Assembly: GCF_003334355.1 (NCBI RefSeq)
Contig: NZ_QOWP01000078.1
Reading direction: 5' to 3' (one strand)
Source of the DNA: Escherichia coli
GTDB lineage: Bacteria; Pseudomonadota; Gammaproteobacteria; Enterobacterales; Enterobacteriaceae
Length of the DNA stretch: 2,009 nucleotides
Shown here: positions 1 through 1,062 of the stretch, piece after piece
Numbering within the stretch: the first letter of the stretch is position 1
Layout of the letters: each line of letters opens with the position of its first letter
The notes under the pieces: model-generated
What the model was told of the DNA's origin: nothing
Database searches by the model: none
Seen by the model: the letters and a program-made list of their open reading frames with translations, nothing else
Program-made: the position numbers and the translations under genes

Positions 1-330
1 CTGCGGTTTTTCAACTATTCAGATACATCACTCCCATCACATTCATTCCTCCGCATCATAGGCATATAGGCTATATCACCTTGATATTTTTCTTCTTCAG
101 ATAAAAACTGTTATCTATGTATACTTTTAAACCCAATCTGTGTAGAGTCTCTGCATAAGATAGTTTGCAGTTGCCGCTTCAGCTTGCGCCATAAACCGCC
201 TGATTTTTGCTGCCACCTGTTAGCATTCCTGTATACCTGAAACGACAATGTTTATCTACGAACTTTAAGAACACCCAAGATAAAAATTGTCAACTATATC
301 ATATATAACACATTACTAATTCGAGGCTAT

Positions 331-444
331 ATGAACAGCATACTGATAATCACATCTCTCCTTATCATATTCAGCATTTTTAGTCATGCCCTAATAAAAT
401 TAGGGATTGGCATATCCAATAACCCAGACAAAACCGATGTATAA
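331..444 (+). CDS. Candidate small ORF, 37 aa, hydrophobic N-terminus (possible small membrane peptide or upstream leader peptide); could be a chance ORF in AT-rich DNA
   Basis: ATG 331 preceded by GAGG (323-326) at a 4-nt spacing; translation [37 protein letters not shown], stop TAA at 442-444. Residues 4-18 form a signal-peptide- or transmembrane-like hydrophobic stretch. Below the size cutoff of the supplied ORF track. AT-rich DNA yields Ile/Leu/Phe-rich frames by chance, hence the low confidence. Confidence 0.2.
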
Positions 445-512
445 GTCAACATATCCTGAATCAGACATACAATATCGCAATGAAAATCAATAATATTTTA
501 AGGAATATCTTC

Positions 513-746
513 ATGAAATCAAAAGACACCCTAAAGTGGTTCCCTGCGCAGCTTCCTGAAGTAAGAATTATCCTAGGGAATGCTGTAGTGGAAGTAGCAA
601 AACAGGGAAGACCTATCAATACCAGAACATTGCTTGATTACATTGAAGGAAACATAAAGAAAAAATCATGGCTGGATAACAAAGAATTATTACAAACAGC
701 GATATCAGTTCTTAAAGACAACCAAAATTTAAATGGTAAAATGTAA
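513..746 (+). CDS. ydfK: Small 77-aa prophage-borne protein of unknown function, YdfK/YnaE-like (cold-shock-associated small protein of cryptic prophages Qin/Rac, recalled from memory). The ORF track starts at ATG 480 (88 aa), but ATG 513 is the more likely start.
   Basis: Open frame 480-746 with in-frame ATG at 513 preceded by AAGGA (500-504) at an 8-nt spacing; ATG 480 has no recognisable Shine-Dalgarno. From 513 the product is exactly 77 aa (MKSKDTLKWFPAQLPEVRIILGNAVVEVAK...). Position directly upstream of a Pin-like recombinase matches the ydfK-pinQ / ynaE-pinR arrangement as I remember it. No recognisable catalytic or DNA-binding motif. Confidence 0.6.
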   Translation: MKSKDTLKWFPAQLPEVRIILGNAVVEVAKQGRPINTRTLLDYIEGNIKKKSWLDNKELLQTAISVLKDNQNLNGKM

Positions 747-925: not shown

Positions 926-1062
926 GGTCTCACCAAAATTACGGGGTTGCATACGCATTCGTTTATTTTCGAACGTGTACATACAAATATGCACAAAAAT
1001 AATCAAAATTATTTTCTGCGATGCATTATGATATGAACACCAATTTCGTATAGAGTCTCACT

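Follow-up and report, generated by a model that had tools for sequence, protein, structure and literature searches.

Anatomy of the AT-rich DNA upstream of ydfK/ynaE in a Rac-type prophage of Escherichia coli: a terminator, a candidate promoter, a probable short leader RNA and the small gene ynaM

Introduction

What is encoded by the half-kilobase of AT-rich DNA that precedes ydfK/ynaE? The transcripts of this gene are cold-shock transcripts, with which the RefSeq product name agrees, and the ydfK UTR is reported to work as an RNA thermosensor (Raghavan et al. 2011, as cited in PMC4444293). The window analysed here, by which we mean the whole stretch of 2009 bases, opens with 512 bases ahead of the ydfK/ynaE start codon. 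A preliminary description, made from the sequence letters, found no open reading frame there and suggested a long leader, perhaps of the cold-shock type, a regulatory RNA, or the junction between prophage and host. In the present analysis, the region was placed in its prophage setting, and published RNA 3′ ends and RNA polymerase binding peaks were brought together on a single map with a conserved promoter island.

Results and discussion

The prophage setting

The window belongs to a Rac-type prophage, of which it forms the right end. The number of complete E. coli genomes that it matched at a coverage of at least 80% exceeded 2,600, and the cassette that it contains was carried by 2,810 of 5,426 complete E. 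coli genomes, or about half. The RefSeq features under the window match were ynaM, ydfK, pinR and tfaR. In the best match, the genes followed one another as uspF, a gap of 776 bp, ynaM, ydfK and pinR, and then tfaR and a tail-fibre gene on the opposite strand. The gene that follows the region, ydfK/ynaE (513–746, plus strand), was identified from its ORF and annotation and encodes a protein of 77 amino acids (Pfam PF27475); the start at 513 is backed by distant homologues that begin MKSEDTL.

Two paralogous copies of the locus are present in K-12, one in Rac (ttcC, ynaM, ynaE, pinR, tfaR) and one in Qin (ynfT, ydfK, pinQ, tfaQ). Bases 12–277 were 98.5% identical to both, and bases 278–512 were 98–100% identical, so that nucleotide identity was 98–100% over 12–512 as a whole. 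The YnaM protein is the same in all, as is the gene order up to pin and tfa. The differences amounted to a handful of SNPs, the window coming from another strain with a Rac-type insertion beside uspF. The same block was found in free lambdoid phages, including mEp460, Tritos, 2H10, PhiR63_1, Turner and others, in the order int, attP, sometimes dinI, the 1–512 region, ynaM, ynaE, pin and tfa.

In Salmonella copies, the YdfK protein was approximately 87% identical, and DNA homology was found only from about window position 278 onward, where the alignments with Salmonella phage 118970_sal3 and with Salmonella IMG/VR loci begin. More distant YnaE homologues (55–66% identity; Enterobacter, Lonsdalea, Pectobacteriaceae) had no ynaM-like ORF, and carried a TATACT or TAAAAT box just 25 nt or so before the ATG. 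Taken together, these data indicate that only the E. coli phage version has the long upstream block. The ynaM–ydfK pair stays together in Salmonella phages and is, judged from these alignments, the older linked pair.

A small membrane protein gene within the region

No ORF of at least 60 amino acids lay entirely within 1–512 on either strand, and to this extent the region was rightly described as ORF-free. Below that threshold, bases 331–444 of the plus strand hold an annotated gene of 37 codons, ynaM/ynfT, preceded by a GAGG Shine–Dalgarno sequence at 323–326. A stretch that seems gene-free at a threshold of 60 amino acids therefore contains a validated small gene. Its product is identical to K-12 YnaM (b4744) and YnfT (b4748), matches PHROG 35882, and scored 63.9 bits against the NCBIfam profile HMM NF041477, well over the curated cut-off of 35 (E = 1.2e-17). 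Residues 3–24 form a hydrophobic segment, in keeping with a single-pass small membrane protein.

The pattern of substitution is also that of a protein-coding gene. An ORF of 37 codons is retained in the corresponding position in Salmonella prophage copies, and of the 23 nucleotides by which the E. coli and Salmonella versions of ynaM differ, 15 fell at codon position 3. Among the changed codons, 12 were synonymous and 8 non-synonymous in the ynaM frame, against 0–1 synonymous in the other two frames. SPA-tagged YnaM has been detected in K-12 (PMC6001520), and the tagged protein was abundant in stationary phase, above most newly found small proteins; ribosome profiling with retapamulin or Onc112 showed no peak at its start codon (bioRxiv 10.1101/511675).

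An intrinsic terminator at the left edge

The window opens with CTGCGGTTTTTC, which is the 3′ arm (CTGCGG) of an intrinsic terminator on the plus strand, together with its U-tract (1–15, the U-tract running through 11). Joined to the 30 nt or so on its left, where the hairpin begins (L001 3971–4008), this sequence forms a 14-bp hairpin followed by U5. Folding of L001:3950–4025 gave a 14-bp stem at −21.7 kcal/mol (z = −3.9), and across 12 copies the stem arms were invariant while the loop varied. Term-seq plus-strand 3′ ends in Qin, at K-12 coordinates 1632571 and 1632574 (Adams et al. 2021, PMC7815308, supplementary file 1), correspond to window positions 12 and 15 at an offset of 1632559. A GC-rich hairpin, a U-tract and RNA 3′ ends at the tract are thus all present. 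A simple scanner missed this terminator because the loop is 9 nt.

The placement of the hairpin resembles that of lambda tI/sib. Both are strong hairpins with a U-tract on the b-region side of att, at a distance from the core of approximately 250–290 bp here and 150–190 bp in lambda. In phage Tritos, transcription of exo, xis and int runs towards the hairpin across attP, which places the hairpin downstream of int, as in lambda; in the prophage it stands at the end opposite int. A sib-type arrangement agrees with the order of genes in Tritos, with the way in which the Qin end aligns to Tritos, and with the lambda geometry. Unlike lambda tI/sib, the terminator lies after dinI and not int in 2H10 and PhiR63_1, and its sequence showed no similarity to lambda sib. 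The lambda-sib-like placement is a small undescribed detail of these prophages.

A conserved island with a candidate promoter

Bases 84–133 form the only conservation island in the non-coding part of the region. Variable columns numbered 2 of 50 in the island, compared with 52 of 269 in the other non-coding part (Fisher p = 0.0066), in an alignment of 12 E. coli-type copies that represents about three lineages and so has little phylogenetic depth. Expressed by segment, 23% of columns were variable in 12–95 and 18% in 132–277, compared with 1 of 36 in 96–131, 6% in ynaM and 5% in ydfK.

The island contains a candidate plus-strand promoter, P1, with a −35 of TTCAGA (96–101), an 18-nt spacer and a −10 of TATACT (120–125). 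These are the hexamers that had been proposed in the preliminary description, and they were recovered here by a consensus scan as a sigma-70-like site with 9 of 12 matches. Sites of this grade occurred 10 times in the window, against 5.5 ± 2.4 in shuffled sequences, a near-chance frequency in AT-rich DNA, and the P1 hexamers by themselves therefore prove nothing. Indirect support for a promoter at 96–125 is provided by the conservation island and by published genomic SELEX, in which RpoS-holoenzyme peaks at 1432638 and 1630740 (U00096.2) correspond to window positions 123 and 157. The RpoH and RpoE peaks correspond to positions 23 and 55. The offset between U00096.2 and the window was calibrated on Fur-site coordinates (PMC2189734). 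From the position of P1, transcription would start near 132. The hexamers given for ynaE by Shimada 2014 (CTGACA-17-TACCAT) were rejected as a candidate promoter of the region, being merely the best hexamers in a broad SELEX peak and lying outside the prophage, approximately 370 bp left of the window.

RNA 3′ ends at 185 and 197

Downstream of P1, published Term-seq data point to a short plus-strand leader RNA of approximately 54–66 nt (132–197), with a 5′ end that P1 would set. At window position 185, 3′ ends were recorded with 76,298 reads in Rac (1434552, minus strand) and 1,026–2,065 reads in Qin (1632744, plus strand), and at position 197 with 44,933 reads in Rac (1434540, minus strand) (PMC7815308). 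The neighbouring uspF terminator had 112,770–347,680 reads in the same tables. The 185 and 197 ends were mapped in the K-12 copies at 37°C, and from 197 up to base 540 the Term-seq tables list no more 3′ ends on the gene strand.

Hairpins predicted at 136–161 and 166–188 (in a fold of 132–215) were not significant (z = −0.9 to −2.0). No U-tract terminator was found at 185–197, and these positions had no entry as a Rho-dependent region in the BCM data (PMC7815308, supplementary file 2). The leader has a C/G ratio of 1.5, an excess of C over G that is consistent with loading of Rho.

The ynaE and ydfK leaders are described as yielding prematurely ended transcripts (Raghavan 2011, as cited in PMC5089854), and RNAs named ‘ttcC-ynaE’ and ‘5′ UTR-ydfK’ co-precipitate with Hfq (PMC4152368). 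An RNA ending at 185 or 197 fits these published leader RNAs: the window has the K-12 leader sequence, with a prematurely ended transcript upstream of the gene. The idea of a long leader or regulatory RNA was therefore sound as regards an RNA, with its 3′ ends at 185/197 and published Hfq-bound leaders, but not as regards a region free of genes, given ynaM at 331–444. The 5′ end of the RNA might also lie at some other position from 16 to 185, or the RNA might have arisen by processing. With the 5′-UTR-derived, prematurely ended E. coli RNAs of PMC7815308, it shares an ‘orphan’ 3′ end ahead of an ORF, abundance at 37°C and association with Hfq; it differs from them in that there is neither an intrinsic terminator at its 3′ end nor a BCM-sensitive region.

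A repeated 13-mer and a second candidate promoter

A 13-mer, AGATAAAAAYTGT, was found three times in the region: at 99–111 (plus strand), at 245–257 (minus strand, inverted, with one mismatch) and at 278–290 (plus strand). Only 0.03 occurrences would be expected, and none of 200 shuffles reached three. Around copies 1 and 3 the similarity reaches further, giving a direct repeat of 20 nt (99–118 and 278–297, 85% identity). Within the first of these, AGATAAAAACTGTTATCTAT, lies the dyad AGATAA-N6-TTATCT, and this repeat shares bases with the −35 and spacer of P1. Copy 2 makes up an inverted repeat of 14 nt with copy 3 (244–257 and 278–291, 93% complementary), and is degenerate in phages 2H10 and PhiR63. 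Among the loci fetched, the 12-mer core occurred only at the copy 1 (P1) and copy 3 (P2) sites. The triplicated 13-mer is, like the placement of the terminator, a small undescribed detail.

Copy 3 overlaps a putative second promoter, P2, the two together occupying 278–309 of the plus strand. P2 has a −10 at 304–309 and a weak −35, TAAAAA, at 281–286, and was missed by the consensus scan. The position of the −10 was kept, as TATAAC in the window, TATAAT in PhiR63 and CATAAT in Salmonella, always 21 nt ahead of the ynaM ATG. Copy 3, the −10-like hexamer and the GAGG Shine–Dalgarno sequence are all retained in the Salmonella copies.

A probable upstream half of a moron cassette

We consider the best reading of these data, with a probability of about 0.65, to be that 1–512 is the upstream half of a ‘moron’, a small accessory cassette made up of P1, a leader RNA that ends at 185–197, and then ynaM–ydfK. 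In lambdoid prophages of the Rac/Qin type, the cassette has the attachment site on one side and the tail-fibre genes on the other. The terminator (1–11) would insulate the cassette by halting transcription that arrives from the side of int and attP or, in some phages, from dinI. P1 (96–125), a promoter of the sigma-70/sigma-S type bound in vitro by several holoenzymes, would fire constitutively and start RNA near 132. At 37°C, most of this RNA would end or be cut at 185–197, giving an abundant Hfq-associated fragment of 55–65 nt. Transcripts that continue past 185–197, or that start at the weaker P2 (approximately 281–309), would encode YnaM and then YdfK/YnaE, and cold would raise the fraction of read-through or stabilise the long form. 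The anatomy itself is well supported, the ynaM gene, the terminator, the 3′ ends and the conservation all being shown; the attenuation or read-through step is plausible but unproven. Most probably, the published response of the ydfK UTR to temperature works through the amount of RNA that passes, or survives beyond, 185–197 and through the ydfK ribosome-binding region. CspA-family proteins are transcription antiterminators, and may be one candidate for the read-through step in the cold.

The leader or regulatory RNA and the promoter suggested in the preliminary description are largely right by this reading, yet they are already published and annotated. The ynaM/ynfT gene, the leader RNA, its binding to Hfq and the temperature response are all in the literature and the K-12 annotation.

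The same data could also be read as two separate units, which we regard as possible but unlikely. Here P1 would make a trans-acting, Hfq-binding sRNA (approximately 132–197), and ynaM–ydfK would be transcribed only from P2, with a ydfK leader of about 200 nt consisting mostly of ynaM. Such a division would suit the Salmonella copies, which keep only the sequence from about 278 onward together with the positionally conserved −10. It would also suit the abundance of the 185/197 RNA, beyond which the tables have no other 3′ end as far as base 540, and the Hfq binding of the leader fragments (PMC4152368). However, the −35 of P2 is poor and fails the consensus scan, and the SELEX holoenzyme peaks fall at 23–157, with none near 300. 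In the Salmonella phage, moreover, a plus-strand ORF ends 48 nt upstream of ynaM, which would allow co-transcription from further upstream there.

A more elaborate scheme, which we hold to be doubtful, combines several of these elements. The P1 RNA ending at 185–197 would be both a prophage-borne, Hfq-dependent sRNA and a gate, and the AGATAAAAAYTGT copies, one over P1 and one on either side of P2, would serve as operators of a regulator that is possibly the small YnaE/YdfK protein itself. Together these would set transcription into ynaM–ynaE in the cold, and the left-edge terminator would double as a sib-like retroregulator of int.

Temperature response and RNA structure

A further reading is a cspA-like thermoregulator, in which a long 5′ UTR (130–512) would refold in the cold into a stable, translatable form. 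Like the 5′ UTRs of the cspA family, the region stands ahead of a cold-induced gene, has a long AT-rich transcript upstream of that gene, and belongs to a UTR for which temperature sensing is reported (as cited in PMC4444293). It lacks, however, a covariance-model match, a cold box and a conserved fold, and has a translated small gene within the ‘UTR’. A permissive scan with the Rfam covariance models gave no match of any family, including the cspA thermoregulator, to 1–512 even at E ≤ 10; the sole real Rfam match in the window was IS009, inside tfa. No tRNA or tmRNA was found by scanning. As the preliminary description had noted, there was no cspA cold box: no plus-strand match with three or fewer mismatches occurred in 1–512, and the total of matches across the window was at chance level.

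Folding energies did not differ from those of shuffled sequences for 1–330 (z = −0.29), 130–530 (z = −0.83) or 310–530 (z = −0.90), so that the folding proposed for the leader gained no support. The consensus fold of 126–335 contained no compensatory pairs, with a positive (penalising) covariation term, and that of 312–545 contained only one, inside coding sequence. In the 2H10 lineage, many substitutions break predicted pairs. Accessibility of the ynaM and ydfK Shine–Dalgarno sequences, as calculated in silico, was barely altered between 37 and 10°C. The lack of an Rfam match, of a cold box and of covariation, with fold energies like those of shuffled sequences, indicates that the temperature sensor is not a conserved cspA-like fold detectable here. 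As one third of the supposed UTR is, in addition, a translated gene, we consider this explanation improbable. The ‘non-coding thermosensor leader’ of ydfK physically includes the gene for a translated membrane protein, and thermosensor models should allow for ynaM.

A long-range helix was predicted with a probability of 0.97 at both 37 and 15°C, in which UCCUUA at 359–364 (ynaM codons 10–12) pairs with UAAGGA at 499–504 (the ydfK Shine–Dalgarno sequence). This raised the prospect of translational coupling, with ynaM codons 10–17 pairing with the ydfK ribosome-binding site (359–382/481–504) and ydfK being translated only when ribosomes traverse ynaM. The anti-Shine–Dalgarno hexamer is UACUUA in 2H10-type copies and UGCUUA in Salmonella copies. 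These are plain synonymous third-position changes by which the pairing is lost, and in folds of both kinds of copy the Shine–Dalgarno sequence pairs elsewhere. The helix, strong in the window sequence but absent from the consensus fold, was rejected as a conserved mechanism. YnaM also accumulates as a stable protein (bioRxiv 10.1101/511675), which again argues against coupling of this kind, and we rate its chances slightly lower even than those of the cspA-like thermoregulator.

Composition of the upstream block

The GC content of 1–512 was 35.2%, against 44.7% in the pin gene, close to the values of about 36% and the mid-40s counted previously. The three minus-strand frames meet stops with their high ends at bases 17, 13 and 21, well within the first 60 nt as had been stated; with all frames closed by base 21, no gene enters from the left on this strand. 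The two longest ORFs of 12–277 (111–248, minus strand; 207–308, plus strand) had no PHROG match, and the four ‘hypothetical proteins’ of phage Turner in this stretch look like over-calling.

It might be supposed that 12–277 is AT-rich, H-NS-bound and functionally inert, a passenger of the cassette. Salmonella copies have unrelated sequence in its place, the SELEX tables flag H-NS in the ynaE–uspF spacer, and outside 84–133 the stretch evolves approximately three to four times faster than the genes (18–23% against 5–6% variable columns). Inert DNA would, however, be at odds with the conservation island at 84–133, the three copies of the 13-mer and the abundant RNA 3′ ends at 185/197, and we find the proposal very hard to sustain.

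The prophage boundary

In K-12, the Rac end is marked by the 51-nt pseudogene ttcC, which in the Rac-type locus occupies window −270 to −220, and the Qin end precedes ynfT by 613 bp; the window is thus wholly phage DNA. A prophage/host junction in 1–512, as suggested by the position of the region at the end of the prophage gene map adjoining uspF, can be dismissed with near certainty, since the Rac end is 220 bp left of the window, free phages share sequence on both sides of base 1, and no duplicated core or breakpoint of an attR was found inside 1–512, where free-phage homology runs on across base 1.

The ynaM–ydfK spacer

The 68 nt between ynaM and ydfK (445–512, plus strand) contain a conserved UCCU at 456–459, a promoter-like site at 446–473 and the ydfK Shine–Dalgarno sequence AAGGA at 500–504. 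A cluster of Fur boxes has been predicted near 470–508, with K-12 coordinates 1631071 and 1432273 corresponding to window position 488 (PMC2189734).

Term-seq signal of the short leader RNA in the Rac and Qin copies

Comparison of the two K-12 copies of the region showed that the 3′ end of the short leader RNA had ~40-70 times more Term-seq reads in Rac (1434540/1434552) than in Qin (1632744), positions that correspond to window 185/197. The hexamers of the candidate promoter P1 (window 96-125) were identical between the copies despite this gap. Qin differed from Rac by C95T, just upstream of the P1 -35 hexamer, and by G153A and A176G, both within the short RNA; to the left of window base -36 (negative positions lie left of the window start), it differed throughout. 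The mapping of reads to near-identical copies may contribute to the gap in read number.

From the att junction to the terminator

Rac-type loci carry a tandem series of three to four TTTTTGCCCC-like motifs in the stretch that separates the att junction from the terminator; the series occupies 3887-3932 of the Rac-type locus L001 (window -113 to -68). TGCCCC motifs were also present at the flanks of the int end in phage Tritos, and both sets of motifs are candidate integrase arm-type binding sites. In phages 2H10 (L004 2600-2660) and PhiR63_1 (L007 230-290), the shared intrinsic terminator, whose 3′ arm and U-tract form window 1-11, is immediately preceded by dinI, with a LexA-box-like CTGT...ACAG palindrome in front of the gene, whereas Tritos and Qin carry an int-attP arm in its place. 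There is therefore a mosaic joint at approximately window -100.

Start site, product and homologues of ydfK

An in-frame ORF longer than ydfK, of 88 aa from ATG 480 (window 480-746), is chosen in some phage records, those of Tritos and PhiR63_1 among them. The 77-aa start at 513 is supported by K-12 and by distant homologues. The YdfK protein (window 513-743) gave a weak, sub-threshold match to the YcgZ family NF040640 (E = 0.009, 16 bits, cut-off 80), a 77-position profile of a different small protein, the operon of which is cold-induced. The ribosome-binding region of ydfK is overlapped by a Fur-box cluster of 17.1 bits (centre at window 488, region 470-508), predicted in an information-theory study in which ynaE and ydfK are among the few 'Fur-activated' genes having such a site (PMC2189734).

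Chromosomal, non-phage homologues of YnaE (62-66%) occur in Enterobacter and E. coli (loci L036-L039). They lie tail-to-tail with a gene for a 2,860-aa GH94 glycosyl hydrolase and have a YnfU-like small gene upstream; in the Enterobacter loci, a (TGTTTC)n microsatellite is found ~240-300 bp upstream of the homologue gene.

Sites upstream of pin and within tfa

Upstream of pin, a promoter-like site, TGTACA-16-AATAAT (976-1003, plus strand), has hexamers identical to those of the constitutive RpoD promoter given for pinR and pinQ by Shimada et al. 2014. A full-length Rfam match to IS009 (RF02111; 1785-1983, minus strand; 220.9 bits, gathering score 117) falls within tfa (tail-fibre assembly), in the C-terminal portion of the gene, and this 'RNA family' thus overlaps coding sequence.
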